From contig CAKZHE010000145.1 in assembly GCA_936920195.1 (NCBI GenBank), positions 1 through 19,208 of the forward strand: a stretch of 19,208 bases of DNA. Direction: 5' to 3'. Under the pieces are notes generated by a model. The model worked only from the letters and a program-made list of their open reading frames with translations. It did no database searches and had not been told where the DNA came from. The translations under genes were made by a program, and so were the position numbers. Shown here one piece after another: positions 589 through 18,946 of this stretch. The first letter of the stretch is position 1. Each line of letters opens with the position of its first letter. The stretch is from an uncultured cyanobacterium (GTDB lineage: Bacteria; Cyanobacteriota; Cyanobacteriia; Cyanobacteriales; FACHB-T130).

Positions 589-594
589 GGATAA

Positions 595-630: not shown

Positions 631-636
631 TAGTTT

Positions 637-1374: not shown

Positions 1375-1383
1375 TTGATTTAG

Positions 1384-1632
1384 ATGGTGGAAAGAGTGAA
1401 AAGTTTATTAATTTTACTAATTCGCGGTTATCGGTTGATAATTTCGCCTTTATTTCCGCCAGTCTGTCGGTTTCATCCGACTTGCTCCCAATATGCCATA
1501 GAAGCGATCGCTCGTTTTGGCAGTTGGCGGGGGAGTTGGCTGGCAATCCGCAGAATTTCCCGCTGTCATCCTTTGAATCCTGGGGGTTACGATCCTGTAC
1601 CTTTAAGGGAAGAGGAAACAGGGAATAAATAG
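1384..1632 (+). CDS. yidD: membrane protein insertion efficiency factor YidD
   Basis: 82-aa ORF. Hallmark YidD motifs are present: [39 protein letters not shown]. Confidence 0.88.
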
Positions 1633-1931
1633 ATAGGGCTTGCTGAAAAAGCTAAGAAAACCGGAGCCAAATATAACTTGCTAGAATATTCAGCGGCTTG
1701 GGATGCGATCGCCATTTCGCGCCGGGGGAAATCTACTTGCTTATGGAATTGCGATCGCCAATCTCTCTCACCACCCCATATTCCTACAATTTAGCAAATT
1801 ATTGTATAATAAGATTTTACTACAAAATATTTTATCTTTCTTAATAAAAATATAAACGACCTTTTGTGTTTTTAGCTTTTTTATCTTTTATAATAAAGAC
1901 ATAGATTTAAAAAAAATAATGAAGGTAACTT

Positions 1932-2384
1932 ATGGATCCCCTAACTACGGCGGTAACTACCCTACTTTTTAAAGCATTTGAGAAGGGTGGTGAAAAGCTA
2001 GGAGAAGCTGTATCAGCTAAGGTTGGTCAACTGCTAAATATAATTCAGGAGAAATTCAAAGCAGAGCGTATTGAAGGAAAACTCATAAACGCTCAAAAAG
2101 ATCCTTCTGAAGATAATAAAAGCAGATTAGCTCAGGAATTAGCATATCAAATGAAAAATGATGAAGCATTTACCAAAAAAATAAAGGAGTTAGTAGAAGA
2201 GAATTCAGATCAGCATACTCATCATACTCAAAAAATCCTTGCAAACATTGATGTAAAAGGCGACATTGAAGTTGATGGTGGTATAAAGCAAACTGTACCA
2301 TCAGGTGGTTCATCTCAGCAGGAAGCCATCACTAATTCTACGGTTGGTGGTAGTATAAAAGTCGGTAATATAATACAGGATTAA
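1932..2384 (+). CDS. hypothetical protein (150 aa): helical, Lys/Glu-rich N-terminal part and a C-terminal G/I/V beta-repeat (GDIEVDGGIKQT...GGSIKVGNIIQD)
   Basis: ORF track. An AT-rich promoter-like region lies upstream with TATAAT at 1889-1894 and GAAGG 8 nt before the ATG. The gene sits inside the low-GC island (the 2101-2160 line has 18/60 G+C, versus 34/60 at 5521-5580). Confidence 0.6.
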   Translation: MDPLTTAVTTLLFKAFEKGGEKLGEAVSAKVGQLLNIIQEKFKAERIEGKLINAQKDPSEDNKSRLAQELAYQMKNDEAFTKKIKELVEENSDQHTHHTQKILANIDVKGDIEVDGGIKQTVPSGGSSQQEAITNSTVGGSIKVGNIIQD

Positions 2385-2396
2385 TCCAGGGTAAAC

Positions 2397-2445
2397 GCAT
2401 CTGAACAATCATCGGCAAAGTTTCCTAGTTGGATTGTTCAGATGC
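2397..2445 (+). promoter_or_regulatory. perfect 14-bp-stem hairpin between the two island genes (attenuator, processing or regulatory structure)
   Basis: gcatctgaacaatc (2397-2410) pairs with gattgttcagatgc (2432-2445) around a 21-nt loop. No U-tract follows. TATAAT at 2451-2456 and GAGGA at 2477-2481 precede the ATG at 2491. Confidence 0.4.
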
Positions 2446-2490
2446 AACAATATAATTGTGAAGTAAATTTTACTATGAGGACTAATCAAA

Positions 2491-3978: not shown

Positions 3979-3993
3979 ATCATAGAAAATACA

Positions 3994-4036
3994 AGGTGTT
4001 TTTTATGCTATAATTAGGGCTGGCTGAAAAACACCT
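3994..4036 (+). terminator. possible terminator or stem-loop downstream of the island
   Basis: aggtgttttt (3994-4003) pairs with aaaaacacct (4027-4036): perfect 10-bp stem with a ~23-nt loop. The 5' arm ends in a T-run. Confidence 0.25.
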
Positions 4037-4150
4037 GAAAGCCAACCTAGATGCCACACAGCGTGAAAAATAGTGGCTTCGGGGGTTAATTCCCAAATTT
4101 ACCCAGCAATTTCCCAGCAATGTGCAAGGGTTTTGAGGCTATAGATAATT

Positions 4151-4879
4151 TTGAATTTTGAATTGATAACAATGAAGCCATATCAACAAGTTCCCATTGA
4201 AGAATGCCAAGAAGCCTTAGTAGCAATTCCTCTGGAAAAATTTGCCGTTGAGTCGCCCCATCCCTACGAAAAACTGGGTGCGCCCTACGGAGAGAAATCG
4301 CCCTATTATCTCCGTCAAAGCGTCCTCGCGGCTCTTGAGCAAGCTCAAGATAATTTAGCAGAATATCGTCCCGGCTGGCGAATTCAAATTTTTGATGCCT
4401 ATCGCCCGATTGCCGTCCAACAATTTATGGTTGATTATACTTTTAATCAACTTGTCCAGGCTCAGGGACTGAAAATAGCCGAATTAAGTACCCCTCAGCA
4501 ACAAGAGATTCTAGAACAGGTTTATCAATTTTGGGCAGTTCCCAGCCACAACCCTGCTACCCCACCCCCCCACAGTACCGGGGCTGCCATTGATATTACC
4601 TTAGTCGATGGGACAGGCCAACCAGTAGATATGGGTTCAGCGATTGATGAAATTTCGCCCCAATCCCATCCCCACTACTTCGATCAAAAAACTCTGCCCA
4701 AAGAACTGGAATATCGCGATCGCCGTCATCTATTGTGGAAAGTGATGCACTTGGCAGGATTTCAGCGCCACCCCAATGAATGGTGGCATTTTTCCCTGGG
4801 CGATCAAATGTGGGCGTGGCTGTGCCAAAGGGAAAACCCAGCATTTGCAACTGTAGCTCGCTACGGTCGAGTAAAATAG
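4151..4879 (+). CDS. ddpX: D-alanyl-D-alanine dipeptidase (VanX/DdpX, peptidase M15D)
   Basis: 242-aa ORF. VanX family motifs are present: FDAYRP, the zinc-ligand motif HSTGAAIDITLVD, and EWWHFS. The true start may be the internal Met at 4172 (MKPYQQ). Confidence 0.85.
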   Translation: MNFELITMKPYQQVPIEECQEALVAIPLEKFAVESPHPYEKLGAPYGEKSPYYLRQSVLAALEQAQDNLAEYRPGWRIQIFDAYRPIAVQQFMVDYTFNQLVQAQGLKIAELSTPQQQEILEQVYQFWAVPSHNPATPPPHSTGAAIDITLVDGTGQPVDMGSAIDEISPQSHPHYFDQKTLPKELEYRDRRHLLWKVMHLAGFQRHPNEWWHFSLGDQMWAWLCQRENPAFATVARYGRVK

Positions 4880-4912
4880 CTGGATAACTTCAGTGAAATT
4901 AATTTACCCATC

Positions 4913-5281
4913 GTGGCAGCATCCATGCGCGTTTACATCTTGCTATTCAATGCCCGGAAAGAAAACGAAGGTATTCATACCATCCGGATTGGCGATCGCA
5001 ACCGAGTGCTAATGTTCGAGTCAGAAGACGATGCGACTCGTTTTGGTTTAATGTTGGAAGCTCAGGATTTTCCCTGTCCTGAAGTCGAACCAATTGATGC
5101 CGACGAAGTGCGGGAATTTTGCCAAAGTGCTGATTATGAGTGGCAACTTGTGCCAGAAGGCGCTTTAGAGCTACCGCCAGAAACCAATCTGGAAGTAACT
5201 GACTGGCAACCAGAGGTCAAAAAACCAGATTTATCTGATGACCTGGACGACATTCGCCGCCAACTGGAACGATTATTGTAG
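4913..5281 (+). CDS. DUF3110-family protein (conserved in cyanobacteria and plastids)
   Basis: 122-aa ORF. MRVYILLFNARKENEGIHTI matches the DUF3110 N-terminal signature, and the C-terminus is acidic. The probable true start is the Met at 4925. Confidence 0.65.
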   Translation: MAASMRVYILLFNARKENEGIHTIRIGDRNRVLMFESEDDATRFGLMLEAQDFPCPEVEPIDADEVREFCQSADYEWQLVPEGALELPPETNLEVTDWQPEVKKPDLSDDLDDIRRQLERLL

Positions 5282-5298
5282 TACCGAAAAATATAGGC

Positions 5299-6213
5299 AT
5301 GGCAAATCTGGAAGAACGGGGGCATTTGCTGACAGAGCAGATTAATCCCAACAGTCAAAATTTAGATCAACTAACGTCTTTGGAATTAGTCGATCTGTTT
5401 AATCGGGAAGATGCTCAAACTCTAGCAGCGATCGCATCTGCCCGCCATCAGTTAGCCCAAGCCATTGACTTGATTGCCGAGGCACTGCGGCACGGGGGCA
5501 GATTATTTTACATCGGAGCGGGGACTAGCGGACGTTTAGGCGTGTTAGATGCGGCAGAATGTCCGCCGACGTTCTGTTCGCCCCCGGAACTGGTACAGGG
5601 GATTATCGCTGGGGGAGCGGCAGCGCTATTACGCAGTTCCGAAGAGTTGGAAGATAAAGCTGAAGATGGAGCCGCTGCGATCGCCCAAAGGCATATTACC
5701 CAATTAGATGTCGTTGTGGGCATTACTGCTGGGGGAACTACTCCCTATGTCTTGGGAGCCATCCAAGCTGCCCAACAACGGGGAGCCGCTACAGTTTACA
5801 TTGCCTGCGTTCCCGCCGATCAAGTTGCCATCGAAACCGACATTGATATCCGGCTGCTGGTTGGTCCGGAAGTAGTCGCCGGATCGACTCGTCTAAAAGC
5901 CGGAACTGTGACTAAAATGGCTTTGAATATCCTTTCCACCGGGGTCATGGTCAAGTTAGGCAAAGTCTACGGCAATCGGATGGTGGATGTAGCGGTGACA
6001 AATAAAAAGCTTCACGACCGGGCTTTAAGGATGTTACAAGATTTGACCAATCTCAGTCGAGAAGAAGCTGCTTATTTGCTCGAACAAAGCGGCAGATCGG
6101 TAAAATTAGCCTTATTAATGCACTGGACAGGTTTAGGCAAAGAAGAAAGCGATCGCCTACTGACCAAATATCAAGGTAATCTCAGATCTGCTGCCCTAAG
6201 TTATCAAAAATGA
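5299..6213 (+). CDS. murQ: N-acetylmuramic acid 6-phosphate etherase
   Basis: 304-aa ORF. SIS-domain signature RLFYIGAGTSGRLGVLDAAECPPTF. The catalytic-region motifs GSTRLKAGTVTKMALN and LKLALLM are typical of MurQ. Confidence 0.9.
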   Translation: MANLEERGHLLTEQINPNSQNLDQLTSLELVDLFNREDAQTLAAIASARHQLAQAIDLIAEALRHGGRLFYIGAGTSGRLGVLDAAECPPTFCSPPELVQGIIAGGAAALLRSSEELEDKAEDGAAAIAQRHITQLDVVVGITAGGTTPYVLGAIQAAQQRGAATVYIACVPADQVAIETDIDIRLLVGPEVVAGSTRLKAGTVTKMALNILSTGVMVKLGKVYGNRMVDVAVTNKKLHDRALRMLQDLTNLSREEAAYLLEQSGRSVKLALLMHWTGLGKEESDRLLTKYQGNLRSAALSYQK

Positions 6214-6259
6214 AGGTTTGTAAAACTTGAGCCAACCCAATTAGCACCCACAAAAAACT

Positions 6260-6402
6260 CCCTATCTTCCCTATCTTCCCTATCTTCCCTATCTTCCCTA
6301 TCTTCCCTATTCCCCATTCCCTATCTTCCCTGTTCCCTGTTCCCTGTTCCCCGTTCCCTGTTCCCTCTTCCCTGTTCCCTGTTCCCTATTCCTATTCCCT
6401 AT
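6260..6402. repeat. heptanucleotide tandem repeat array (TTCCCTA / TTCCCTG variants; STRR-like), ~20 units
   Basis: Direct reading: ccctatcttccctatcttcc...ccctgttccctgttcc...ccctattcctattccctatt. It lies immediately upstream of the ATG at 6410. The plus strand is polypyrimidine. Confidence 0.9.
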
Positions 6403-6409
6403 TAAAAAA

Positions 6410-7921
6410 ATGTTTACTGCATCAGAAACTACCGCCACAGTTTTAATCGTATTAGTCGCTTTAGGCATTCTCGGTTGGGGCTTTTATCGTGCTAAACCCT
6501 TCGGTAAAATCGGCATCCTAGCCTGGTTGCAATCCGTAGCCCTGATGACTCCCTGGCTATTATTTTTCGGCTTATTTGCCGCCGGAATTTACATCAATTT
6601 AGTTGGCATTCTCTTGCTGCTAATTGTTTCCACTGGTTTGTATATCTTCTTGGGCAGTAAACTGCGAGCCGCTAGTCAAGATTTGGGATTGAGAGAACAG
6701 GTGGCTCGCGCTGTCAGAGAGCGACAAGAATCATCAAATCAACCTACTGAGGCAAGTGCCGCGACAACTCCACCTACAGATCCTCTCAAAGTCGAAGTTG
6801 TGCCAATTCCCGATGAAGATTTGAAAAAGATTCAGGGAATTTTTGGGTTTGAAACCTTTTTTGCTACAGAAACTATACCCTATCAGGATGGGGTGATTTT
6901 TAACGGCAATCTGCGGGGGGAACCAGCAACAGTCTACGAACGACTATCTGCTAGTTTAAAAGAAAGATTGAGCGATCGCTATCGGTTATTCCTGATTCAA
7001 AATCCCGAAGAAAAACCCGTAGTCATTATCCTCCCCAGCAGCAACCAACCTCAACCCAGTACCACTGCTCAAAAAGCTTTAGCCGTAGCTCTTTTCCTGG
7101 CTACCGTACTTACCAGCTTAGAAACAGCCAGTTTTTTACTCGGTTTTAGTTTATTTGATAACTTCAATCGTCTCCCCGAAGCCTTACCCCTAAGCTTAGG
7201 TTTTTGGGTAGTCTTAGCCGCCTACGAAATTGGACGGCGATGGGTAGCCAAACAAGAAAAAGTTAGCCTCAGTTGGCCTTTGTTTATTCCCACCGTTCAA
7301 ATTGGATCTTTTGGAGCCATTGTTCGATTTGAATCCCTGCTCCCCAACCGCAGCACCCTGTTTGATATTGCCCTAGCCGGACCCGCAGCCAGCGCGATTA
7401 TTTCAGTCATCATGTTACTAACTGGCTTATTGCTTTCTCATCCCGGCAGTTTATTTCAGATTCCATCGGAGTTTTTTCAAGGCTCAATTTTAGTTGGCAG
7501 TTTGGCTCGCGTTGTCCTCGGTTCGGCTCTCCATCAAACGATTGTTGATATTCACCCGCTAACTGTAATTGGCTGGTTGGGTTTAGTAATTACCGCCTTA
7601 AACTTAATGCCTGCCGGACAACTGGATGGAGGGCGAATTATCCAAGCTATTTACGGACGAAAAATTGCTCGTCGCTCTACCGTTGCCACCCTAATTATTC
7701 TGGGGATTTTATCATTTGCAAATCCCGGCAATCCTTTAGTTTTATATTGGGCGATTGTCATTCTCTTTTTGCAACGGGATTTAGAACGGCCTAGTTTGAA
7801 TGAACTTTCGGAACCAGATGATGCTAGAGCCGCTTTAGGATTATTAGCATTGTTTTTAACCATTGCCACACTCTTACCCCTAACTCCCGGATTAGCTGGT
7901 CGTCTGGGAATTGGCGGATAA
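6410..7921 (+). CDS. site-2-protease (peptidase M50) family membrane protein, EGY-like, with a degenerate zinc-binding motif
   Basis: 503-aa polytopic ORF. The conserved third motif NLMPAGQLDGGRI (NxxPxxxLDGG) is present. Where HExxH is expected, the sequence reads LAAYEIGRRWVA (H to Y and H to R). Confidence 0.7.
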   Translation: MFTASETTATVLIVLVALGILGWGFYRAKPFGKIGILAWLQSVALMTPWLLFFGLFAAGIYINLVGILLLLIVSTGLYIFLGSKLRAASQDLGLREQVARAVRERQESSNQPTEASAATTPPTDPLKVEVVPIPDEDLKKIQGIFGFETFFATETIPYQDGVIFNGNLRGEPATVYERLSASLKERLSDRYRLFLIQNPEEKPVVIILPSSNQPQPSTTAQKALAVALFLATVLTSLETASFLLGFSLFDNFNRLPEALPLSLGFWVVLAAYEIGRRWVAKQEKVSLSWPLFIPTVQIGSFGAIVRFESLLPNRSTLFDIALAGPAASAIISVIMLLTGLLLSHPGSLFQIPSEFFQGSILVGSLARVVLGSALHQTIVDIHPLTVIGWLGLVITALNLMPAGQLDGGRIIQAIYGRKIARRSTVATLIILGILSFANPGNPLVLYWAIVILFLQRDLERPSLNELSEPDDARAALGLLALFLTIATLLPLTPGLAGRLGIGG

Positions 7922-7929
7922 TATCAATT

Positions 7930-8010
7930 GTAGGTTGGGTTGCGCGACAGCAAAACCCAACAAACTACTTATAAATGTTGGGTTTCCACTGTCGTTCCAA
8001 CCCAACCTAC
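7930..8010. repeat. dispersed hairpin repeat, copy A, present as an imperfect inverted pair (MITE- or terminator-like)
   Basis: gtaggttgggttgcgcgacagcaaaacccaacaaac (7930-7965) is identical over 36 nt to 18978-19013. Its imperfect reverse complement lies at 7977-8010. The unit contains an internal hairpin gttgggtt...aacccaac. Confidence 0.7.
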
Positions 8011-8162
8011 TTTGAGTATTATTGAGATCTGCATCACTAGGCCGAAAGTAAATTATCACTAACCAAACCCCTCTGAAATCCTAGTAAGTCAGGAAAGTCC
8101 CATGAATACTATGAAGTAAAGGGATAATTGCTTTCTCAAGCCCTGCTACTAGAGCCGATTTT

Positions 8163-8744
8163 ATGAATGACTCAGAGTGCCAAGAAGATATCATCGCTGC
8201 CAATGAGGAATCGCTGTTGCAATTGAAGCGATCGCTCATTCTCTCCCAAGGCGATTTTTCGATAATATTGGCTTATTGTCCCTCAAAACGCCTGCGGAAG
8301 CAAATTGCCCAACAGCTACATGAGTCATTAGCGATCGCCATCCAAGATCTTACTCTGCCTCCGTCTGCCCAAACGCTATATACTACAATTTATCATGCTC
8401 TGCCCGAACCCCATCCCGAAGCCTTGATGGTATTTGGTTTAGAGTCTGTGGTCAATATTGAAGAATTGTTAGTTGCCACCAACTTTGTCCGCGACGAGTT
8501 TCGCAAGCAATTTTCTTTTCCCCTAGTTCTGTGGGTTAATCAAGAAATTTTACAAAAAATGATTCGGCTCGCCCCAGATTTTAAGAATTGGACAACCACA
8601 GCGATTCGCTTTGAACGAGTCTGCAATAAAGTAGTGGATTTTCCCCATCGTCCCAGCACCTCAACCAAGAGGAGAAAAAAGGCTAAACATAGTTTACCAC
8701 CAATCCAACGCCGATATGATGACGATCGCCCAATCAGTTTATAG
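8163..8744 (+). CDS. hypothetical protein (193 aa) with a basic C-terminal tail
   Basis: ORF track. Coding-like composition. It is convergent with the 8746..9495 ORF and their stop codons abut. From memory, the motif block GDFSIILAYC...LMVFGLESV...FPLVLWVN...LAPDF resembles an N-terminal module of large cyanobacterial multidomain proteins. This is unverified. Confidence 0.5.
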   Translation: MNDSECQEDIIAANEESLLQLKRSLILSQGDFSIILAYCPSKRLRKQIAQQLHESLAIAIQDLTLPPSAQTLYTTIYHALPEPHPEALMVFGLESVVNIEELLVATNFVRDEFRKQFSFPLVLWVNQEILQKMIRLAPDFKNWTTTAIRFERVCNKVVDFPHRPSTSTKRRKKAKHSLPPIQRRYDDDRPISL

Positions 8745-8745
8745 T

Positions 8746-9495
8746 TTATCGCCTTCTCCGTTTAGTTCTTGTGGGACGTTCTGAGCGATACTCCCGCTCA
8801 TCATCGGGATATTCTAACTGGCGGCTAACTTCAGCAAAAAGATCTCTTCGCAGATAGGGATAGTCGCTTACCCACAAATTACGATCGGGAATATAAATAT
8901 CAGAAGTTTTGACAATGCTGCTGAGATCTCCCCGGTAGGACATAACTAGCATCTCCGCAATTAAACCTGGTGCGATCGCTTTGTGTTCCCGACGCAAAGG
9001 AACTTGCAATTGGGTAGTAAATCCGGTTTCATCTCCTACTTCAATATTCAGCCTGCGTTCGCGATTTTCGACAATTACTAATTGGCCTTTTTTATTAACA
9101 GTTTCTTCTTCCCCAATCAACTCTTCGGTAATGTAGATATCTAAAACTTGACCGCGCCAAAAGCCACTATAGGGGAGTTTGCGATTGCTGGCATTGCGAA
9201 TGCTCGCCCATAATACGGGACCCCACAACCAGTATAAACCAAGAAAAATCCCAATTAAAAATAGGATGCCTTCGGAATCTTCCCCCAAAAATGACCGGAG
9301 CAGCAGCAAAACGACGATCCCGACTACCGAAATCAACAGTCGTTTTAAAAAATCTGGAAATTTCCCCCAATAGAAGGTGTACTGAGGGCCAGTCGCCATC
9401 AGGGGGATAATCTGTTCAAATTTTTTGCGGGTTAAGGGGATGAGCATAAGGCCAGAAGCGACTAAAAAGCCAATAATTTTAATTATAACAAACAC
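8746..9495 (-). CDS. hypothetical membrane protein: 3-4 N-terminal TM helices, a soluble C-terminal domain and an Arg-rich tail
   Basis: 249-aa ORF. Its start lies 22 nt downstream of the GH3 gene stop on the same strand, so it is probably the last gene of the operon. Confidence 0.55.
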   Translation of the reverse strand: MFVIIKIIGFLVASGLMLIPLTRKKFEQIIPLMATGPQYTFYWGKFPDFLKRLLISVVGIVVLLLLRSFLGEDSEGILFLIGIFLGLYWLWGPVLWASIRNASNRKLPYSGFWRGQVLDIYITEELIGEEETVNKKGQLVIVENRERRLNIEVGDETGFTTQLQVPLRREHKAIAPGLIAEMLVMSYRGDLSSIVKTSDIYIPDRNLWVSDYPYLRRDLFAEVSRQLEYPDDEREYRSERPTRTKRRRR

Positions 9496-9517: not shown

Positions 9518-11044
9518 TTAAAAAAGGGATTTCAATGTTTGTAGCAGTGTATCATTAATGGGGGTTGCGGTCAAAATTGGATGTTTAATTCCGCCCCAAA
9601 TACTCCCGTTACGAACGCGGTCTAATGCTAAAATTTCAGGAATGCGATCGCCTATCAAAACCTGGGTTGGAGCAAGTTGCTCGAGCAGTCTGGCGCGGCG
9701 ATAGTGGATGGATTGGGATAAGAGATTATCCAAATCTTGAGCAATGATATCTGGGGTTTGGATGGCTGAATCTAGTAACAGGATATAGTGCGGGGGATGG
9801 GCAACGGGAACTAAGGTTTTAAAACAGTTTTCTGGCAAGTTTAATTGATTTAATACCTGATGAACAAAGGTTTCTTGAAGTTTTTCGCCAACTAAATCGC
9901 TAATAGAGCTATCGCGCCCTAGAAATTCTAAGCAAGGAGTGTTGTGATACCAATGGGTGACGCGAATGCGATCGCCAATCCGATAGCGATATAAACCGCC
10001 TTTTTGGGATAGGATAATAGTGTATTCCTGCCCGGTGCTGAGTTCGGGTAATTTGTATAAATTGCCAGCATTATCTTCAAACTCAAAAAAAACTTCATCT
10101 AAAACTGGTACATATCCCTCGGCGGCAATTAAGGGAATTGTCATGGGAGCTTCGGTAGCTAATAAACCTTTGCCTTGAATAAATACGCCGGGAAAGTGCG
10201 ATCGCAGTCCTTTAGCTTGATCGGCGGCATTAGCACTATCCCAACAAGAAATTAGTTTTAAATTTGACCAAAGTTCTGTCCAAGGAATATTAGGCTCTGT
10301 TAGCAGTTGTAGACGATGGGCAGAAAGGCGATCGCGCAATTCTGCTTGTAATAACAGATGATTTTCTTGAATATATTTTAAATGGACTTGCAAAAAACTG
10401 GGACTCCAAACAGAAATAATTTCGAGATTTTCTGCCTGTAATAAGGCTAAACAAAGTTGATGTTTAAACCTTTGGGGATCGCGGAGGCGATTAAGTCCAG
10501 CAGGCATGACTAACCAAGGGCGCAACAGCCACTGCAACCAACTATCTAAATAGTCTAAATCATCTTGCAAAGATAGGGGGCGATCTGCGGAGGAATTGGC
10601 TGAATCTAATTGAGGGGAAATACAAGCATAAAGTTTTCCGGTGGAGAATTTCGGTCCATGTTGAATTAAATCCTGCGCCCAGATACAAAACATCTGGTTA
10701 AATGATTTCCGCAGGGAACGAGTATAGGGAATCCATTTAACTGCCCCGCTACTACCAGAAGTTTTTTCATAAAATAAGATTTGTTCGGGAGTTAGGGGAA
10801 TTTTATTTGGTTTAGAATCAGTTAAAATCCAAGGTTCAATGGTATCATAATTCACAATGGGAACGCGCTGCCAATCGGCAACAGAATTAATTCCCAAGAA
10901 TTGACCATACTGGCTAAAAATTAGGCGATCGCAGATATTTTGTTGGACGGCGGCTTGAGTTAATTCGGGGTGATTGAGGGCTTGCTGAAATCGGCGAGCC
11001 GTTGGGGTGAGAACCTGCCCAAAAAGCTGAATAAACTTCCGCAT
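9518..11044 (-). CDS. GH3-family acyl-acid amido synthetase (adenylate-forming; JAR1/GH3-like)
   Basis: 508-aa ORF. GH3 motifs are present: EKTSGSSGAVKWIPYT (the SSGTxxGxxKxIP box) and GLYRYRIGDRIRV (the YRYxxGD box). Confidence 0.78.
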   Translation of the reverse strand: MRKFIQLFGQVLTPTARRFQQALNHPELTQAAVQQNICDRLIFSQYGQFLGINSVADWQRVPIVNYDTIEPWILTDSKPNKIPLTPEQILFYEKTSGSSGAVKWIPYTRSLRKSFNQMFCIWAQDLIQHGPKFSTGKLYACISPQLDSANSSADRPLSLQDDLDYLDSWLQWLLRPWLVMPAGLNRLRDPQRFKHQLCLALLQAENLEIISVWSPSFLQVHLKYIQENHLLLQAELRDRLSAHRLQLLTEPNIPWTELWSNLKLISCWDSANAADQAKGLRSHFPGVFIQGKGLLATEAPMTIPLIAAEGYVPVLDEVFFEFEDNAGNLYKLPELSTGQEYTIILSQKGGLYRYRIGDRIRVTHWYHNTPCLEFLGRDSSISDLVGEKLQETFVHQVLNQLNLPENCFKTLVPVAHPPHYILLLDSAIQTPDIIAQDLDNLLSQSIHYRRARLLEQLAPTQVLIGDRIPEILALDRVRNGSIWGGIKHPILTATPINDTLLQTLKSLF

Positions 11045-11652
11045 TATTCCACCTTTTCATTAATATAAAGTGTGGTCTGAAATTCTATATAAGCGCGATC
11101 GCCAATTTCTGTTCCTGGACCAAGATGGGAACCCGCACCTAGAAAAACATCATTGCCAACTTTAACTTTTTTCAGATATAACATTAAGTTTTGTTTGCGG
11201 GGTTTGATAATGTGAGAACACATGATCACGCGATGTCCAACCAGAACGCGATCGCCAATTTCTATGAAACCGCGATCGGCAATCTCTAATCCCGGAGTCC
11301 AATAAACATTTTTCCCCACCTTCGCTCCCCAAAGTCGCAACCACCAGGAAAATACCCCTGGAATTAGCCGCAGCACCACCTCTAACGCTGGAATTGCAAT
11401 ATAAATAGCTTGAATTTGATGACTGCCCCACCAAGGGCTATAATCCTTACTTAGCAAATAACTAATTCCCTCCTGGACAGGATAGAAATATTGATGCCAT
11501 CGGTACACTAGCAATGGGAATCCATAGAGAGAAAATAACACAGCCAAAAGACCAAATATACTCTGTGAATGCACCCAATAAACTATTGATGCTCCAGTTA
11601 AAAGTAACACTGAAGCCGGAAAAAACAAAAGAACTTTGCTGAGAAAAGTCAT
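11044..11652 (-). CDS. membrane-anchored hexapeptide-repeat (left-handed beta-helix) acyl/acetyltransferase
   Basis: 202-aa ORF. Two N-terminal TM helices. The C-terminus carries LbH repeats: IGDRVLVG, VGNDVFLGAGSHLGPGTEIGDRAYI. Its start overlaps the GH3 stop by 1 nt. Its stop is 2 nt from the upstream gene. Confidence 0.6.
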   Translation of the reverse strand: MTFLSKVLLFFPASVLLLTGASIVYWVHSQSIFGLLAVLFSLYGFPLLVYRWHQYFYPVQEGISYLLSKDYSPWWGSHQIQAIYIAIPALEVVLRLIPGVFSWWLRLWGAKVGKNVYWTPGLEIADRGFIEIGDRVLVGHRVIMCSHIIKPRKQNLMLYLKKVKVGNDVFLGAGSHLGPGTEIGDRAYIEFQTTLYINEKVE

Positions 11653-11653
11653 A

Positions 11654-12406
11654 TTATTTAAAAGGAAAAAAAAGCTTTTTGGTCAATGTTAGGGGTGTGG
11701 TAATTCCGATTTCTGCTGGCAAATCTTTCCCTGGATAAAATGTCCCATGCCATCTATCCCAGAGTTTAAAGTTAGCCCCATAATTGTAGTAGTGAACGCT
11801 ACAAGCATGATGACGAGCATGATCTTGGGGTAAAATTAGCCAAGGCGAGAGGTAGGAGTAGAGCCAACTATGGGGAGAAATAATCAATCGGCTATGTCGC
11901 CATAAATCCAAGGCTGAAGTTAGGCTAATTCCCAAAAGATAGCCTGTGGAATCAGCGAGTAGATATAAAAACAGGGCATGAATCCACAAATAAATAATTA
12001 AAAAACTTGCCCACAGAGTATTTCTAGATGTGCCGAAAACATCCATTTGAGTAACAGTATGATGAGTTTGATGAACTTGCCAAAACCATCCCCTATGCAA
12101 TAAACGATGATTCCAGTAATACCCATAATCGACTACCACGAAACTGAGGATAAAAGTAAAAATTGGCGATAATTGTAGACATCCCTGTTGAGCAGGCAGT
12201 AAATAATTATAAAGTTGATAAATCAAGGTAATTTGCAGCAGGGGAATTAACATTCCTTGAATAGATAATCCGGTACTATCTAGCAGCCAATCTTGCCAAC
12301 TTTTCGTTTTAAGTTGAGTTCTAGCCACGCGATCGCAGATTGTCCAGATTATCAAGCTCCCAAAAACTATTAAAACTAAAAGTTGGGTAAACATTGGCAT
12401 ATTCAC
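11654..12406 (-). CDS. fatty acid hydroxylase superfamily (sterol desaturase / FA hydroxylase, membrane di-iron) enzyme
   Basis: 250-aa hydrophobic ORF. Three His boxes: HRLLH (HX3H), HQTHH (HX2HH) and HARHH (HX2HH). Confidence 0.8.
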   Translation of the reverse strand: MNMPMFTQLLVLIVFGSLIIWTICDRVARTQLKTKSWQDWLLDSTGLSIQGMLIPLLQITLIYQLYNYLLPAQQGCLQLSPIFTFILSFVVVDYGYYWNHRLLHRGWFWQVHQTHHTVTQMDVFGTSRNTLWASFLIIYLWIHALFLYLLADSTGYLLGISLTSALDLWRHSRLIISPHSWLYSYLSPWLILPQDHARHHACSVHYYNYGANFKLWDRWHGTFYPGKDLPAEIGITTPLTLTKKLFFPFK

Positions 12407-12409
12407 ACC

Positions 12410-13432
12410 TCAAACCCAAAAGGTAACTTTAACTGATTGGTGGGAAAGCGATCGCGGATCTTCTCCAGCAGCGATCGCGTCTCGAATTGATTCGACAAAG
12501 ACATGAATTGTATCTGCTGGAGTATTCTGAAATTTTGTGCCATATTTGGCGATCGCCTCACCCTGAATCCCCAATATTTTCACATCTTGTCCAATAATAT
12601 GTTGTGCCGTCCACCAGACAAACGGACGAGCAAACCAATTCCAAATCCCATAATTATAAGTGACATCTGTATAAACCAAAGTTGTATTATCTGTTTCTGG
12701 AATCGATTGGCTAGTAATCAACAAACGGCGATTTTTTCCCATTTTATATTCCACAGAGGTAATATTGGGCATATAAAAGCGATCGATATGCTCAATCTTA
12801 GTTCCTTGGGCATTGAGAAAACCAGCATACCAACCTAAATTGGTTGTTTCATTCTGATATTCTACCAACACGCTACCATCTTTTCGCTCGACAGTCATCT
12901 CTAGTTTTTGCTTACGAGAAGTCCGAAAAACTCCGGGATGAACAGAAGCCGTATGGGGAATATCAATAAAGTTTTCGGCACAATTAGTCACATTGTTCTG
13001 AAAACGATTAATTACTCGGACTGTTTCCCAACCTGGTTGTCCATAATAAGGCATAGGAAAAGGCGTAAAATCTTCGCTGCTGCTATCGGCTAACCGGACA
13101 TAAACATAGCCATCCTGTTCTTTGGTAGCATAAACCTTGGCTTGCCGATGGGGAGAAGGTTTAAAATTATCACCTTCCGAGGGAACAGCAATTACCTTGC
13201 CATGACTATCATATACCCACCCATGATAAGGACATTGCAAAGCATGATTACAAACTTTTCCCACCGACAAACGGCTATTACGATGCAAACAGCGATCGCG
13301 CAATGCCACAGGTTCGCCATTTTCGCCGCGAAATATTGCCAGCCACTCTCCTAAAACGGTTCTTGCTAGTACCGTCTTTGGTTGCAGTTGTTCGCTCAGT
13401 GCTATAATATACCAGAAATCTTCAAATTTCAT
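12410..13432 (-). CDS. Rieske [2Fe-2S] non-heme iron oxygenase (alpha-subunit-like; KshA/PAO/SxtT-type size)
   Basis: 340-aa ORF. Rieske motif CLH-X16-CPYH (RCLHRN...QCPYHGW). Mononuclear iron motif NCAENFIDIPHTASVHPG (E/N-x2-D-x2-H-x4-H). Confidence 0.8.
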   Translation of the reverse strand: MKFEDFWYIIALSEQLQPKTVLARTVLGEWLAIFRGENGEPVALRDRCLHRNSRLSVGKVCNHALQCPYHGWVYDSHGKVIAVPSEGDNFKPSPHRQAKVYATKEQDGYVYVRLADSSSEDFTPFPMPYYGQPGWETVRVINRFQNNVTNCAENFIDIPHTASVHPGVFRTSRKQKLEMTVERKDGSVLVEYQNETTNLGWYAGFLNAQGTKIEHIDRFYMPNITSVEYKMGKNRRLLITSQSIPETDNTTLVYTDVTYNYGIWNWFARPFVWWTAQHIIGQDVKILGIQGEAIAKYGTKFQNTPADTIHVFVESIRDAIAAGEDPRSLSHQSVKVTFWV

Positions 13433-13477
13433 GCTGGTTAGTTGGCAAAGTCGAAGACAATGATATCATTATAAATT

Positions 13478-13768
13478 ATGACATTACAGGAATTGCAAAA
13501 ACAGGTATTGCATTTACCAATTAGCGATCGCTGTATATCTACTCTTTCTAATGAACGAATTTTAGCACTGACAGAACTAGAAATGGCAGCAGATCAAGAT
13601 GCTCGGTTGAGTGAATTACTCGATCGCCAGCAGGCAGGCATTCTTGCCGAAAATGAGTTTCCAGAGCTACAAATTCTTATGCAGACTTATCAAGAAGGAT
13701 TATTGCGGAAAGCAATTGCCCTCAGTGAAGCTGTTAAACGTGGATTAATTGAACCTTTGAGCCAGTGA
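13478..13768 (+). CDS. hypothetical small protein (96 aa), on the opposite strand in the gap between the ferredoxin and Rieske genes
   Basis: ORF track. It occupies a 374-bp gap with no competing minus-strand ORF. It is helical and Glu/Leu-rich. It weakly resembles small addiction-module / antitoxin-like components (MTLQELQKQVLHLPISDR...). This is unverified. Confidence 0.35.
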   Translation: MTLQELQKQVLHLPISDRCISTLSNERILALTELEMAADQDARLSELLDRQQAGILAENEFPELQILMQTYQEGLLRKAIALSEAVKRGLIEPLSQ

Positions 13769-13806
13769 ATCAGATTTCTGAACAAGTCCGAATACAAGAA
13801 TGTGAT

Positions 13807-14133
13807 TTATTGTTTTATTCGGCGAATTTCAAGATTATTCGTTAGGTTAATTTGGCAGGCTAATCGAGCATTTGGATTTTCGGGATATAATGTATCTAGC
13901 ATCTCTTGTTCATCCGGTTGAGGGGGAGAAATATCGCCAATTACCTCAACCAAACAAGTCCCACAAATTCCCGTTCGGCAACCAAACAATAGCGGTGAAT
14001 TGCGAATATTGAGATGCTCAGATAAATTTTGATGCGCTGACAGAATTACCGGAGGATATTCTGTGCCTGGAAAGTAAATCGTACATTGCTCAGACATGGC
14101 AAAAATTCTCCCGCTCAAACCGTTCAAAAGCAC
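13807..14133 (-). CDS. plant-type [2Fe-2S] ferredoxin (electron donor for the Rieske oxygenases)
   Basis: CX4CX2C...C motif: GCRTGICGTC ... ARLACQ. The likely true start is the internal Met (MSEQCTIYF) at about 14097. That would reduce the overlap with the upstream gene to a few nt. Confidence 0.75.
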   Translation of the reverse strand: MLLNGLSGRIFAMSEQCTIYFPGTEYPPVILSAHQNLSEHLNIRNSPLLFGCRTGICGTCLVEVIGDISPPQPDEQEMLDTLYPENPNARLACQINLTNNLEIRRIKQ

Positions 14134-15301
14134 TCTGTTGTGTTGCCAAATATCGGGGAATGGAATTACCTGCCATTAAAGACATTTCTCGATTCCTTTT
14201 CCACAAATAATCCAATTTTTCGATATAGACTTTATAAGATGCCATCGCCTCTTGATGAGTCAAAAAACTTCGGTGTAACCCTTCCGATTCTTCCAGAAAA
14301 CAGCGCCGCATCATCGCTTTGGCATCTCGATCGCTCATTTCAAAAATAGGCGATCGCAACACCCGATAAATCTTACCATACAGGGCGGGATCGTACCAAA
14401 AAATCCCATTAATCGCCGCTGAAAAGTGAAAATGATCCCGCTGACATCCCAGCAAACCTAAATTAGCTACCAGACTTTCAAAAGCTGTTGGCGGTGCTAA
14501 ACAGGTAATTACATCCTGAGAAACAATTGTGGAACTATTGAAATGAAAGCTTTCATCTAGAAAGTGATAATAAGAAATTTGGGCGGGAATCGGAGCCTGT
14601 TCTTGATGGGGATGCTTTTGATAATAATTACTGAGTTTGTGCTGAACAAGTTTGCCATTCAGAGTTCGCACCCCCCGCACCGTGAAATACTGACAAGCCA
14701 AGAAAGTATTATTGGCAGAAATTAGCCCAAAATACTGTAATTGGATCTTTTTCCACCAGGCTTTTAAGGCATTTGTATCGGCAAATACCATTGTTTCGGT
14801 AAAGGGTCCCCGCATCGGATAAGTGAAAATTAGCTCTCCAAATAAAGCCTGTTCAACCTGTTTAGAAATTGTCCGAAAGGCATTGATATGAGCGCGTTCT
14901 TGGGAGGATTCCAAATCTAACGTATCGCAAATTAATCGAAAGTCTTCCTGGGCATAAAGTCCGGTAGCACTGGTTTGATTAAAGAAAATAGTGGCAATTT
15001 CCGCCGAAACTATTTGGGAATAATATGCCACCCAATAAAGTTGATTTAAAATTACTCGTTGCTGGGGGCTAGCTTGTTCCCATAAAGGCGTACCATAGAG
15101 TAAGGAAAACTCCTCTGGATTCCAATATTCATCCCGGCAATCTTCATACCGAAACTTGCCTACTGTTTCATCCATCAAAGCCGTATGATCTTGTTGCTGG
15201 TTACGGTTGTGGTTAATTTGCAACTTCCGATATACTAGGGAACTACTAGATAATTGAGCAGGAGCTAGTGACATAGAATTAGCTGTTTTTAAAAAACACA
15301 T
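14090..15301 (-). CDS. dimetal-carboxylate (ferritin-like) oxygenase. It is AurF-type N-oxygenase-like, or possibly CylC-type halogenase-like.
   Basis: 403-aa ORF. EXXH motifs at QERAH and DESFH, with upstream carboxylates (SAEIATIFF). It overlaps the upstream ORF by 13 nt. The probable start is Met10 (MSLAPAQ). Confidence 0.5.
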   Translation of the reverse strand: MCFLKTANSMSLAPAQLSSSSLVYRKLQINHNRNQQQDHTALMDETVGKFRYEDCRDEYWNPEEFSLLYGTPLWEQASPQQRVILNQLYWVAYYSQIVSAEIATIFFNQTSATGLYAQEDFRLICDTLDLESSQERAHINAFRTISKQVEQALFGELIFTYPMRGPFTETMVFADTNALKAWWKKIQLQYFGLISANNTFLACQYFTVRGVRTLNGKLVQHKLSNYYQKHPHQEQAPIPAQISYYHFLDESFHFNSSTIVSQDVITCLAPPTAFESLVANLGLLGCQRDHFHFSAAINGIFWYDPALYGKIYRVLRSPIFEMSDRDAKAMMRRCFLEESEGLHRSFLTHQEAMASYKVYIEKLDYLWKRNREMSLMAGNSIPRYLATQQSAFERFERENFCHV

Positions 15302-16191
15302 TGATGAGCAGGTAACGGTTGAAAAGCGCCGCGATTTTCCAGACTTTCTACAATTGATTGTACCGAGTCTCCAACCATGAGCGATCGCAACAGATCCAAT
15401 CTCGTCCGACTATGATTTTCCGTATCCAATTCTTGCAAAATTTGAATCTTCTGCTTCCGGGAAAGATGTCCTTTCACCTGTTCAATTGCCCCCAACACAT
15501 TTTGAGGTCCCACTTGCACCATCAACAAAAACCGTGACAACAAATCAATGATATTTCCTCGACTAGATGGTGACAGGGAAATTTGATGAAACAGAATATT
15601 TCCGGTACTGTGATGTCGCGCTTCTGCTTGCAAAAAACTCCGAAACACCTCTGCCAAAGGTTGATGATGACATTCTTTCGCCAGTCGGCGGTAATGGCTC
15701 AATCCCCATCCTTCCAAAACCACTTGCAGCACAAACAATAATACCGTTTTATCCGCATCTTCAATGACTTCTGCCAGTAAAGATAAAAACGGATCTTGAC
15801 TATTAGTTAGTTCTGATTCTGGACAGAAATAGCTCAAATGACTAAGATGAATAGTTTCATCAGCCGTAAACAATCCATAAAGCATCCGCTCCTCAATTGT
15901 TTCTGCTAGCAATACCATTTTCGCCATATAGCCCACCCCAGCTTTTTCGATGAAATATGCCTCTTCTAAAAGGCTGCGATTGGCAATTTCTACCATCGCC
16001 AATTGTTCGGCTGTACTAGCTTCTTGAAAAATTTTTACTTGGGGCAAATTAAAAAATGAAGCATCCCAATAAGTAGCGGGCAAATTGGGAGAATTTTTGC
16101 TGCCATTCTGATTTGGTAATGCCGCTGCCAGCACTTTCCGCAATCGGTTATCAGCATTGATATGGGGCAAATCAATTTCAAGCATTGGCAA
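15289..16191 (-). CDS. ferritin-like di-iron carboxylate protein (second putative oxygenase)
   Basis: 300-aa ORF. Twin E...EXXH pattern: LEEAYFIEKAG ... ADETIHLSH and VLEGWG ... QAEARHH. It is not ADO and not AcsF (see rejected). Confidence 0.5.
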   Translation of the reverse strand: MPMLEIDLPHINADNRLRKVLAAALPNQNGSKNSPNLPATYWDASFFNLPQVKIFQEASTAEQLAMVEIANRSLLEEAYFIEKAGVGYMAKMVLLAETIEERMLYGLFTADETIHLSHLSYFCPESELTNSQDPFLSLLAEVIEDADKTVLLFVLQVVLEGWGLSHYRRLAKECHHQPLAEVFRSFLQAEARHHSTGNILFHQISLSPSSRGNIIDLLSRFLLMVQVGPQNVLGAIEQVKGHLSRKQKIQILQELDTENHSRTRLDLLRSLMVGDSVQSIVESLENRGAFQPLPAHQCVF

Positions 16192-16197
16192 TCCTAA

Positions 16198-17247
16198 TTA
16201 GTTTTCCGAAAAAGAATGAGAGCGTTCAAGTTTATCCTGGCTTTCAACAGCTTGCCATGTCCCCCAAGTCAGGGCTTTTTGGTGATTAACGTGCTGAATA
16301 AATTGTAAAATTGAGCGATCGGCAATTGTGGGAGTTTTGAGATCGAATTGAATTGTTTGAAATACTTGAGTATCTCCAGTAGCAAAGTAATTTCCTACCT
16401 GCTGAGTTACCCAAAGTAAAAACCGATTCACCGCCCATCCCCAACATCCCAACCGCTTAGGTGTCACCAGAATAGTTTGCCCTTCAGTTTTACCATCCTC
16501 CATCATTCTTAGGGCAAATATAATATAGAAATGCAGAAGATCTGGACCGAGGGTGACAGTTCCCGTACTACCATACCAATAGCACATACTATAGGTAACT
16601 TCCTGACGGTATAGAGGACGAATTAAACGGATTAACCAAGATTCATCTCCTCCCCGCGTAGTATTGCTAAAAGTCACTGCATTAGGATTGAGATCTTGCT
16701 GTTCAAAGACAATTTTCAAAGGTAAATTGTGGACGGTATTAAAGTGATGAGCATCAATGGCATTAATCAGTAAGACATTAGGATGGCAATTTTTAATAAA
16801 GTGAGTTCCCAAAATATAATCGCAATCTATTTCTGCTAATTCCGGAACAAAAGGTAACGAACTTGGCATTTCTTCTCCTGCCCAAACCCAAATCATCCCA
16901 TATTTTTCGGCGGTATGCCAGGTTTTGAGACATACAGGTAAAGGATTTTTTTGTGAGGGAATATCTACACAAATTCCCTGCTCGTTATATTTCCAATTAT
17001 GGAAAAAGCAGCGAATACCATCGCCGTCTACTTTGCCTTCCGCTAGATGAGCGCCCATGTGCGGGCAATAGGCATCTATCGCCACCACTTTACCGCTATT
17101 TCCGCGATAAATGGCTAAGTTTTTGCCTAGTAGCTTCAGGGGTTTAACTTGGCGGATTTTTAATTTTCGGGATGGTAGCGCCCAGTACCATCCCTCAACG
17201 AATTGGCAGGGATTATTGAAGGTGGATTGTGCTATAGTAGAAGACAT
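16198..17247 (-). CDS. Rieske [2Fe-2S] non-heme iron oxygenase, first gene of the cluster
   Basis: 349-aa ORF. Rieske motif CPH-X16-CFFH (YCPHMGAHL...IRCFFHNW). Iron motif NAIDAHHFNTVH (D-x2-H-x4-H). Confidence 0.8.
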   Translation of the reverse strand: MSSTIAQSTFNNPCQFVEGWYWALPSRKLKIRQVKPLKLLGKNLAIYRGNSGKVVAIDAYCPHMGAHLAEGKVDGDGIRCFFHNWKYNEQGICVDIPSQKNPLPVCLKTWHTAEKYGMIWVWAGEEMPSSLPFVPELAEIDCDYILGTHFIKNCHPNVLLINAIDAHHFNTVHNLPLKIVFEQQDLNPNAVTFSNTTRGGDESWLIRLIRPLYRQEVTYSMCYWYGSTGTVTLGPDLLHFYIIFALRMMEDGKTEGQTILVTPKRLGCWGWAVNRFLLWVTQQVGNYFATGDTQVFQTIQFDLKTPTIADRSILQFIQHVNHQKALTWGTWQAVESQDKLERSHSFSEN

Positions 17248-17509: not shown

Positions 17510-18946
17510 ATGGATAAAAACAGTCCAGAAAATACCTATCGGCAACAAGTTCTGCAAGAACAAGAAGAAGTTGCTCGTCAGTTGAAAAAAAACAGCATCA
17601 ATGCCCCACAGTCCTTGGCATCGGGGAGTAACATTAGAGGAATTACCCAGACAAATAAAGCGATTGATTATCGCATTACGGGCTTTTGGTTCTGGCGTAG
17701 TGTGGTTGTTCCGCCTAATGTTTATGTGATTCATACCAGACAAGGAAAGAGCGAACCCATCCATATTGGCATGGGCATTTCCTTCCGCTTCAATCCCCTG
17801 AGCGATGCCTTTCTGGTCATCCCCTCCTCCGTACAAACTATCCTAATTAATGCTAATTGTATTTCTATTGAGCGACAAGGGGTATTAGTCCAAGCTTACC
17901 TGCAATGGATTATTGGCGATATCAAAATCGCCTACTGGAAATTGGATTTTTCCGATCCTGGCGATCCGATGGGCATTGTCAATTTGCAACTGAAAGAACA
18001 AGCTGAAGCTGCGATTAAAGATAAAGTTGCTACCATGAGTATTGACGAGATTCTCAGCGATAAACAACCGATTATTGAAGAACTAACTCGTCGGTTGAAA
18101 GCAGTTGCTGAGGGCAGTAGAGAAGACAGCGGGACATCGGGTGGATTAGGGTTGAAAATTGTCACAATTCAGATTAAGGAAGCTGTAGTAAGTTCGACTC
18201 GATTGTGGCAAAATCTGCAAGCTCCTTTTCGTGCCGAAAGAGAAAGATTAGCGCGTCTGGCAGAATTAGCGAGCCATCAAGCGATCGCTGCTCAAGAATT
18301 GGAAAACCAGATTACTTCCCAAAGATCGGAATTAAATGCCCAAAGCGAACTTGAACAACTGCGCTCTGAACAAGATCGCCGGAAGTACGATCGAGAACAG
18401 AGCGAAAATCAGCGCCGTCACTCCCTTGAACAAGAGGCAGCCCGACAAAAACTGATCGAAGAAAATCAAACTATTCAGGCACGTAATGAAGCTAAATTAG
18501 CATTAGTTCTCCAAGAATTAGAGTTGGAAAAACGCAAGATTACCGCAGAAATTGAGCAAGTAGAACAGCAAATGCAGTTAGATGCAGTGGAACGACAAAA
18601 AGAACTGGCAAAAATTACGGCTGAACTGGAAATTAAAGAGAGATATAATTTAGCTGAATTTACCCAGAAGCGAAGGGAATTGGTATTGGCTAAACAACAG
18701 CAGGACATTGAAAACGATCTTTCAGCAACTTATCTACAATCGGAATTAATTGCTAAGTTGCCCGAAATTGCCGAAAACCTGCCGACTGCCCAAGAACAAC
18801 GCACAACCATTATTGCCACTGATGGCAAAGAGGGGGGAGGAATGACGCAATTATTAACTTTTGTTGCCAGCGCCCTGAGTTTAACCCAAAATTTTCTGAG
18901 CCAAGCTAATTCAGGAAATCAAAGTATAGAAAAGGTCGATGAATAA
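17510..18946 (+). CDS. flotillin-like SPFH/band-7 domain protein with a long EA/Q-rich coiled coil
   Basis: 478-aa ORF. SPFH-like N-terminal half (VVVPPNVYVIHTRQGK...). Flotillin-type C-terminus: LIAKLPEIAENLP...TTIIATDG. It lacks the N-terminal TM hairpin typical of FloT. Confidence 0.75.
   Translation: MDKNSPENTYRQQVLQEQEEVARQLKKNSINAPQSLASGSNIRGITQTNKAIDYRITGFWFWRSVVVPPNVYVIHTRQGKSEPIHIGMGISFRFNPLSDAFLVIPSSVQTILINANCISIERQGVLVQAYLQWIIGDIKIAYWKLDFSDPGDPMGIVNLQLKEQAEAAIKDKVATMSIDEILSDKQPIIEELTRRLKAVAEGSREDSGTSGGLGLKIVTIQIKEAVVSSTRLWQNLQAPFRAERERLARLAELASHQAIAAQELENQITSQRSELNAQSELEQLRSEQDRRKYDREQSENQRRHSLEQEAARQKLIEENQTIQARNEAKLALVLQELELEKRKITAEIEQVEQQMQLDAVERQKELAKITAELEIKERYNLAEFTQKRRELVLAKQQQDIENDLSATYLQSELIAKLPEIAENLPTAQEQRTTIIATDGKEGGGMTQLLTFVASALSLTQNFLSQANSGNQSIEKVDE

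Follow-up and report, generated by a model that had tools for sequence, protein, structure and literature searches.

Which chemistry do two neighbouring ferritin-like proteins carry out when they are encoded between two Rieske oxygenases, and on what kind of molecule does it act? This question is raised by contig CAKZHE010000145.1 (assembly GCA_936920195.1) from an uncultured cyanobacterium of the FACHB-T130 lineage, of which we analysed the whole stretch of 19,208 nucleotides (nt), called the window in the following. A reading made from the sequence alone, here the sequence-only reading, had pointed to two adjacent open reading frames (ORFs) between positions 14090 and 16191, one of 403 amino acids (aa) and of AurF/CylC-like type, the other of 300 aa, and had suggested that next to two Rieske enzymes they take part in a multi-step oxidation, possibly including N-oxygenation or C–H halogenation. 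Both ORFs are present, on the minus strand, and lie between two Rieske monooxygenases in one operon that also encodes a ferredoxin. They are genes 2 and 3 of one conserved eight-gene, operon-like cassette, and the window adds one more member to an orphan cluster type that is already in the literature. Ligand invariance, the Pfam assignment of a database protein identical to the 403-aa protein (PF28091) and AlphaFold2 models confirm both as diiron enzymes, a conclusion that rests mainly on conservation and structure, motif counts being only marginally above chance. We lean, by a modest degree, towards a reading in which both are catalytic and perform ferredoxin-driven C–H functionalization of a lipid that is not bound to a carrier protein, possibly an N-acyl amino acid.

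The 403-aa protein (gene 3; 14090–15301, minus strand) is of the Sll0266 type, and its identical database entry carries the precomputed Pfam family PF28091 ('CylC-like'), a model that was not contained in the Pfam copy used to scan the window. Two starts are possible for its gene, ATG 15301, which gives a 13-nt overlap with the upstream gene, and ATG 15274 (M10) as the alternative. Two ExxH motifs, E135–H138 and E250–H253, are 115 residues apart, practically the spacing of about 114 that had been given before, and are embedded in QExxH (134–138) and HxxDExxH (246–253). By itself the ExxH count is weak, with three seen against about 0.8–1.0 expected (shuffle P about 0.05–0.06). The upstream carboxylates that had been named together with these motifs stood in part: E101 is invariant, and the second position is occupied by Gln220. 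An exhaustive HMMER scan of 1.84 billion representative sequences returned 147 clusters for this protein's family, whose full-length members fall into two sizes (about 390–410 or about 430–470 aa); proteins of about 450 aa bearing the NocO/CylC motifs share 26–34% identity with the 403-aa protein (phmmer E 1e-39 to 1e-61). The family profile further matches CmlI (E 6.8e-4) by way of the HxxDExxH helix, while phmmer of both diiron proteins against the PDB sequences gave nothing useful. AlphaFold2 models of the two reached predicted template modelling scores of 0.81 and 0.82. The 403-aa protein falls into the AurF/CmlI fold class, and its placement there, more precisely in the CylC-like family, is supported, as the sequence-only reading had it.

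What sets the protein apart within this family becomes visible in comparison with NocO, a CylC homologue with nine chlorination-essential residues (E94, Q128, E129, H132, E252, H279, D282, E283 and H286), of which six are proposed metal ligands (PMC12101540). With the mutagenesis primers given there, we rebuilt the NocO stretches that hold these nine residues and set them into the alignment of 229 full-length family members, in which the 206 sequences with at least 53% identity to the window protein are taken as a clade. Eight of the nine residues are kept in the 403-aa protein, namely E101, Q134, E135, H138, H246, D249, E250 and H253, and the six proposed ligands as well as Q134 and D249 are invariant in the clade (206/206). 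At the ninth position, which corresponds to NocO E252 and in AurF to the ligand E196, the 403-aa protein has Gln220; every one of the 206 clade sequences has Gln here, whereas outside the clade the residue is Glu, except for one Asp in a distant member and one misaligned outlier. In NocO this glutamate is predicted to swing out and so free the chloride site, the E252A variant is inactive, and Gln occupies the position in a small subset of the CylC homologues (PMC12101540). Q204 was considered as the equivalent of E252 on account of an 'AN' match, which is due to chance, and was rejected; the full alignment leads to Q220, as does the NocO fragment rebuilt from the primers. Exactly 45 residues lie between positions 155 and 200 in all clade members, compared with 87–108 in CylC-type enzymes, whose insert of 40–60 residues the clade lacks; the most distant family members carry Glu in place of the QExxH Gln. 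Judged from these alignments, the 403-aa protein belongs to a distinct subfamily that has the halogenase-type QExxH and is without the Glu, the insert and the carrier-protein context. With the CylC/NocO/BrtJ halogenases it shares the Pfam family, both motifs, the N-terminal Glu, the proposed set of three His and three Glu ligands, the AurF-like fold and, presumably, a ferredoxin-supplied, O2-dependent hydrogen abstraction. It differs from them in its low identity, in Gln220 and in the missing insert, and its cassette, with no acyl carrier protein (ACP), fatty acyl-AMP ligase (FAAL) or polyketide synthase (PKS), is conserved across phyla, in contrast to their variable natural-product clusters.

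The neighbouring ORF (gene 2, sll0265 type; 15289–16191, minus strand) is listed with 300 aa from TTG 16191, but its probable true start is ATG 16185, giving 298 aa, because identical 298-aa proteins are found in the database and an AGGA lies 6 nt upstream. The classical double E...ExxH pattern that had been read from it is borne out, with E80 (or E75)...E110xxH113 and E158...E188xxH191, E80 and E158 each standing 30 residues ahead. Invariant in 126 homologues, five of them from non-cyanobacterial loci at 37–46% identity, are E75, E80, D109, E110, H113, E158, E188 and H191. The protein has a generic diiron-oxidase fold, a four-helix bundle with E...ExxH on two helix pairs and a complete set of four carboxylates and two histidines, and since this full ligand set is kept over cross-phylum distances, it is probably a catalytic protein and not a degenerate partner. 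It has no Pfam or NCBIfam match and no PDB sequence match, either by single sequence or by profile, and is assigned to no named characterized subfamily; some homologues weakly match PF13668 (Ferritin_2). To generic ferritin-like diiron oxidases (cyanobacterial aldehyde-deformylating oxygenase, R2lox, the alpha subunit of soluble methane monooxygenase (sMMO) and the R2 protein of ribonucleotide reductase (RNR)) it is 10–14% identical, and it differs from them in having no Pfam or NCBIfam family. That the two diiron proteins are paralogues was rejected: hhalign gave a probability of 0.6%, hence no detectable relation, and aligned only a short 'YW..xF.L...Q.AS' stretch before helix 1. This similar stretch before core helix 1 (DEYWNPEEFSLLYGTPLWEQASPQQ versus ATYWDASFFNLPQVKIFQEASTAEQ, in an hhalign alignment that is not significant) could be a shared docking or lid element.

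The diiron pair is part of a tight run of eight minus-strand genes from 17247 to 9518, whose junctions overlap or measure 1–14 nt, with the exception of 374 nt between the ferredoxin and the second Rieske gene. For comparison we used 80 cyanobacterial genome loci, within 86 related loci in all. Gene 1 (16198–17247) encodes a Rieske [2Fe-2S] non-haem-iron monooxygenase of 349 aa and sll0264 type (Pfam Rieske 2e-22), with CxH...CxxH and DxxHxxxxH motifs in its translation; the closest solved relative is KshA (5e-24), followed by SxtDIOX/SxtT, and the gene adjoins in 76 of the 80 loci. On the other side of the pair, the 2Fe-2S ferredoxin of Fed6/ssl2559 type (13807–14133; Pfam Fer2 9.8e-9; Cx4Cx2C...C motif), whose probable start ATG 14097 overlaps the end of the CylC-like gene, adjoins in 77 of them; its orthology to ssl2559 is taken from Table S4 of PMC8406957. 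The second Rieske monooxygenase (12410–13432; 340 aa; sll1297/'pobA' type; Pfam Rieske 5e-22, with a VanA_C catalytic domain, 2e-8) has SxtDIOX/SxtT, NdmA and DdmC as closest solved relatives and is present in 78/80 loci. It is followed by a membrane diiron protein of the fatty-acid-hydroxylase/sterol-desaturase family (11654–12406; 250 aa; sll1510 type; Pfam FA_hydroxylase 2e-23) with the His boxes HRLLH, HQTHH and HARHH, a membrane-anchored hexapeptide-repeat acyltransferase (11044–11652; 202 aa; sll1511 type; Pfam Hexapep 6e-11) with a best NCBIfam match to the Pls/PosA terminal domain at 46 bits, and a GH3-family ATP-dependent acyl-acid amido synthetase (9518–11044; 508 aa; Pfam GH3 N, M and C domains), to which JAR1 and GH3.15 are the closest solved relatives. 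Five O2-activating metalloenzymes are thus encoded together, two Rieske, two soluble diiron and one membrane diiron hydroxylase.

The 374-nt gap (13433–13806) contains a plus-strand ORF of 96 aa (13478–13768) without a Pfam match, and a PHROGs search of the small window ORFs, this one included, gave none either. It looks like a small inserted gene; just 5' of it, at 13442–13469, lies a promoter-like site (10/12, with TG extension). The corresponding junction measures only 30 nt in Microseira.

Clusters of this kind have been described twice, independently. Eusebio 2021 classed 36 of 95 CylC-homologue clusters as 'Rieske-containing' and orphan; these lack a carrier protein and combine a single CylC homologue with a sterol-desaturase-family protein and between two and four Rieske proteins. 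In that study they fall into one clade together with clusters from Synechocystis called 'PriA-containing', for which the orthologues sll0264, sll0265, sll0266, ssl2559, sll1297, sll1510 and sll1511 are given in Table S4; the orthologue was annotated as a CylC-like halogenase, and it was proposed that this clade may dispense with a tethered substrate (PMC8406957). The same arrangement was described as 'cluster f' around fed6 (ssl2559) by Cassier-Chauvat and Chauvat 2014 (PMC4284462). The window has the features of both, a ferredoxin and an acyltransferase among them, and the cluster f description fits it gene for gene. It is colinear with the loci of Tolypothrix PCC 7101 and Calothrix NIES-22 listed by Eusebio 2021 (PMC8406957), whose CylC-like proteins are 86–87% identical to that of the window. 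Compared with the Sll0266/Sll0265 clusters, gene set and order are the same; the window lacks the optional third Rieske gene, the sll0263-like gene and the DUF962/Mpo1-like gene, and has the small plus-strand ORF between ferredoxin and second Rieske gene. NCBI names homologues of the 403-aa protein 'P-aminobenzoate N-oxygenase AurF', and a later characterization of clade members was not found in the literature. On the physiological side, sll0266 is down-regulated on iron deprivation (PMC3516471), and in Synechocystis phosphate limitation induces ssl2559–sll1297 32-fold in a way that depends on PhoB (PMC4195498, PMC11126600). Fed6 was reported to be essential for photoautotrophic growth (PMC4284462), but fx6 was later fully deleted (Wang 2022, PMC8887894), and we therefore rejected its essentiality as a sign of an essential pathway.

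The distribution of the cassette goes beyond these records. Of the 80 cyanobacterial loci, 74 keep the first four genes colinear and 49 keep all eight; the loci span Nostocales, Oscillatoriales, Microcystis, Tumidithrix, Scytolyngbya and Coleofasciculus, and across the cyanobacterial orders the CylC-like protein retains 72–89% identity. Outside cyanobacteria the cassette occurs, with its order largely kept, in Myxococcota (a Labilithrix assembly and a Myxococcales assembly) and in three further contigs, in some cases with the last genes missing or inverted, and the CylC-like protein alone occurs in Blastocatellia (Acidobacteriota) and Elusimicrobiota. Across phyla it is the best kept of the eight proteins, at 58–61% identity versus 37–58% for the rest. 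The synteny across phyla and the Gln clade are additions to the earlier, cyanobacterial catalogue of the cluster. Several of the non-cyanobacterial loci show rearrangements or extra genes. In locus L086 the first Rieske gene and the diiron protein gene lie at the far end, and the region 14054–16396 with its neighbours encodes a PAP2::GH3 fusion of 780 aa (PAP2 is a lipid-phosphatase domain), besides a CMAS-type methyltransferase and a protein that combines Amidohydro with Mpo1-like (DUF962). Other non-cyanobacterial versions (L081, L083, L084, L085) carry as extras a third Rieske gene, a short-chain dehydrogenase/reductase and an asparagine-synthase-like gene, and in some an unannotated gene of 238–269 aa separates the first Rieske gene from that of the diiron protein.

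For the function we propose the following sequence of steps. The dedicated 2Fe-2S ferredoxin would reduce the Rieske and diiron centres, and the CylC-like protein, binding two irons through E101, E135, H138, H246, E250 and H253, would activate O2 and abstract hydrogen at an unactivated carbon in a lipid free of ACP. The most plausible target would be an N-acyl amino acid, attacked in its acyl chain, or a similar lipid, with the GH3 ligase making the N-acyl amino acid from free fatty acid. The other four oxygenases would contribute further hydroxylations or desaturations, and the acyltransferase would esterify the resulting hydroxyl. At the step that decides the product, we give oxygen rebound or desaturation a chance that falls just short of even, while chloride rebound is a tentative possibility and the remainder goes to other outcomes. 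That the substrate is a lipid free of a carrier is suggested because no PP-binding (carrier protein) or AMP-binding (FAAL) gene is found in the window or the 86 related loci, and by the FA_hydroxylase protein together with the PAP2::GH3, CMAS-type and Mpo1-like variants.

The GH3 enzyme may be the best lead to the substrate. OlsH, the only characterized bacterial GH3 enzyme, converts free fatty acid, ornithine and ATP into N-acyl ornithine (PMC12493201). The OlsH/OlsI/OlsE ornithine-lipid pathway of Singulisphaera resembles the cassette in that it combines the genes of a GH3 ligase and an FA_hydroxylase-family enzyme with one for an O-acyltransferase function, and in that OlsH uses free fatty acids, so that no ACP is needed. 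It differs in that the matches are at family level only (30 and 53 bits), the acyltransferase of the cassette is a hexapeptide-repeat protein and not an alpha/beta-hydrolase, and the cassette also encodes a ferredoxin and four soluble oxygenases that the pathway does not have. Ornithine lipids are typical of low-phosphate conditions, and the induction of ssl2559–sll1297 by phosphate limitation fits remodelling to a phosphorus-free lipid. In its widest form, an ancient cross-phylum pathway to a heavily oxidized, possibly transiently chlorinated, phosphorus-free N-acyl-amino-acid membrane lipid, formed by cyanobacteria under phosphate limitation, we consider the proposal doubtful.

A number of observations weigh against our main reading. 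Upstream of the operon, five Pho box matches stand against 4.9 expected, so that there is no enrichment, and we know of no aminolipid reported from cyanobacteria. The GH3 protein reaches 30 bits with the NCBIfam model of OlsH at a cut-off of 620, and the best NCBIfam match of the FA_hydroxylase protein, OlsE, reaches 53 bits at a cut-off of 475; with scores this far below the cut-offs, membership of both in the OlsH and OlsE families was rejected. The AlphaFold2 model of the 403-aa protein is moderate, with a predicted local distance difference test of 78.5 and 49–69 for the remaining four models, and a Foldseek comparison of this model with PDB, one of the checks that had been suggested, gave no significant match (best E 0.18) and pointed only to generic diiron folds, namely R2lox, desaturase and RNR R2. 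Sll0266 was screened for expression and solubility only (PMC12101540). Finally, the change from Glu to Gln is ambiguous, for it removes a residue that NocO needs, yet it also removes a potential carboxylate ligand.

This last point bears directly on the alternative that survives best, which makes the 403-aa protein a genuine radical chlorinase or brominase of the CylC type that acts on a free lipid, the product being a chlorinated lipid or a cryptic alkyl chloride consumed later. We regard it as possible, though with a likelihood well below even. It draws on the membership in PF28091, on the eight retained NocO-essential residues, including the QExxH Gln that replaces AurF D135 in halogenases, and on the annotation of the orthologue as a CylC-like halogenase (PMC8406957). 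The Gln220 position can be read in either direction: NocO E252A is inactive and the clade has Gln without exception, but Gln also occurs in a small subset of CylC homologues (PMC12101540) and, being neutral and a poor iron ligand, it would let the proposed open halide site persist while still accepting a hydrogen bond. The context speaks against halogenation, since ACP, FAAL and the CylC-type insert are missing, the cassette encodes nothing like CylK or BrtB for the further use of an alkyl chloride, and an identity of 58–61% across phyla, soil lineages included, is unusual for halogenated secondary metabolism. We also know of no organochlorine lipid in Synechocystis 6803, which likewise counts against it.

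Less likely, and in our view improbable, is that the cassette is an ordinary strain-specific secondary-metabolite cluster making a specialized natural product. Eusebio 2021 classed such loci among the biosynthetic gene clusters (PMC8406957), and they are absent from many cyanobacteria, with fed6 missing from several genomes (PMC4284462, Table 1). However, a scaffold-forming enzyme is found neither in the window nor in the 86 loci examined (PKS, non-ribosomal peptide synthetase, terpene cyclase and precursors of ribosomally synthesized and post-translationally modified peptides were all looked for), and the nearly invariant gene order and the high identity of the CylC-like protein across orders and phyla do not agree with strain specificity. 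The same holds for HIP1, a marker of cyanobacteria: the octamer GCGATCGC occurs 32 times in the window against 0.15 expected, with a density inside the cassette equal to that of the flanks. This abundance and even spread show that the window is cyanobacterial and that the cassette has long been resident in the genome.

An AurF/CmlI-type N-oxygenase, converting an amine, for example of an amino-acid head group, to hydroxylamine, nitroso or nitro, is very unlikely for the 403-aa protein. With AurF and CmlI (PF11583; PDB 2jcd and 5hyh) it shares the HxxDExxH helix with the extra histidine H246 that is typical of N-oxygenases, and a near-identical helix spacing of the ligands; the family profile match to CmlI and the NCBI naming of homologues as AurF point the same way. 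The Pfam AurF model, however, covers residues 58–156 only and scores 19.9 bits at a gathering threshold of 29.6, identity to AurF and CmlI is 11–12%, and of the AurF set of three histidines and four carboxylates six of seven ligands are present, the seventh, E196, being Gln220, while D135 is Gln134. Genes for arylamine or p-aminobenzoate biosynthesis are found neither in the window nor in the related loci. The ligand alignment that the sequence-only reading had called for shows all six metal ligands proposed for NocO and six of the seven of AurF, with Gln at the E196/E252 position. Its suggestion of N-oxygenation or halogenation is a reasonable lead more than a result, and the AurF-type form fails two ligand tests. 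Weakest of all is the notion that one or both proteins are non-catalytic (iron storage, a PaaC-like scaffold or a subunit that regulates the Rieske oxygenases). The adjacency of the two genes and their probable translational coupling, which recall the PaaA/PaaC and sMMO alpha/beta pairs, speak for it, but full invariant ligand sets are kept in both proteins across phyla, non-catalytic partners such as PaaC normally lose their metal ligands, and 290–400 aa is far above the size of storage ferritins or Dps.

Beyond the cassette, the window holds genes of other kinds. A 249-aa ORF (8746–9495, minus strand) starts 22 nt past the GH3 gene, with hydrophobic segments at its N-terminus, a very basic C-terminus and no family match; it probably lies outside the cassette. 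On the other side, divergently oriented, an SPFH/Band-7 protein of 478 aa is encoded (17510–18946, plus strand), whose C-terminal half is long, rich in Gln and Glu and coiled-coil-like. Both were considered as cassette members and rejected, being neighbours of the cassette in none of the 80 loci. The left flank (1–8700) carries housekeeping genes, namely YidD, a PDZ protein, an M15 D-Ala-D-Ala dipeptidase, DUF3110, a MurQ-like SIS protein and an M50 peptidase, and the GC content falls to 0.35 near 2000–3500. A promoter and terminator scan gave counts at chance level, and an Rfam search gave no matches.

CylC-type enzymes are, to our knowledge, the only known diiron C–H halogenases, and their study is hindered by the need for carrier-protein-bound substrates. 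The Gln clade is the largest and most conserved branch of PF28091, comes without a carrier protein and is present in the tractable Synechocystis 6803 (sll0264–sll0266), and its invariant change from Glu to Gln offers a direct handle on chloride versus oxygen transfer at a diiron site. The cross-phylum cassette with its module of GH3 ligase, acyltransferase and fatty-acid hydroxylase, together with the induction by phosphate limitation, suggests a physiological lipid and not an exotic toxin. If the proposed N-acyl-amino-acid lipid pathway is true, it would represent a lipid class previously unrecognized in cyanobacteria, and the CylC-like protein would either represent the first diiron halogenase with a free substrate or belong to a hydroxylase-like sister lineage of the diiron halogenases.

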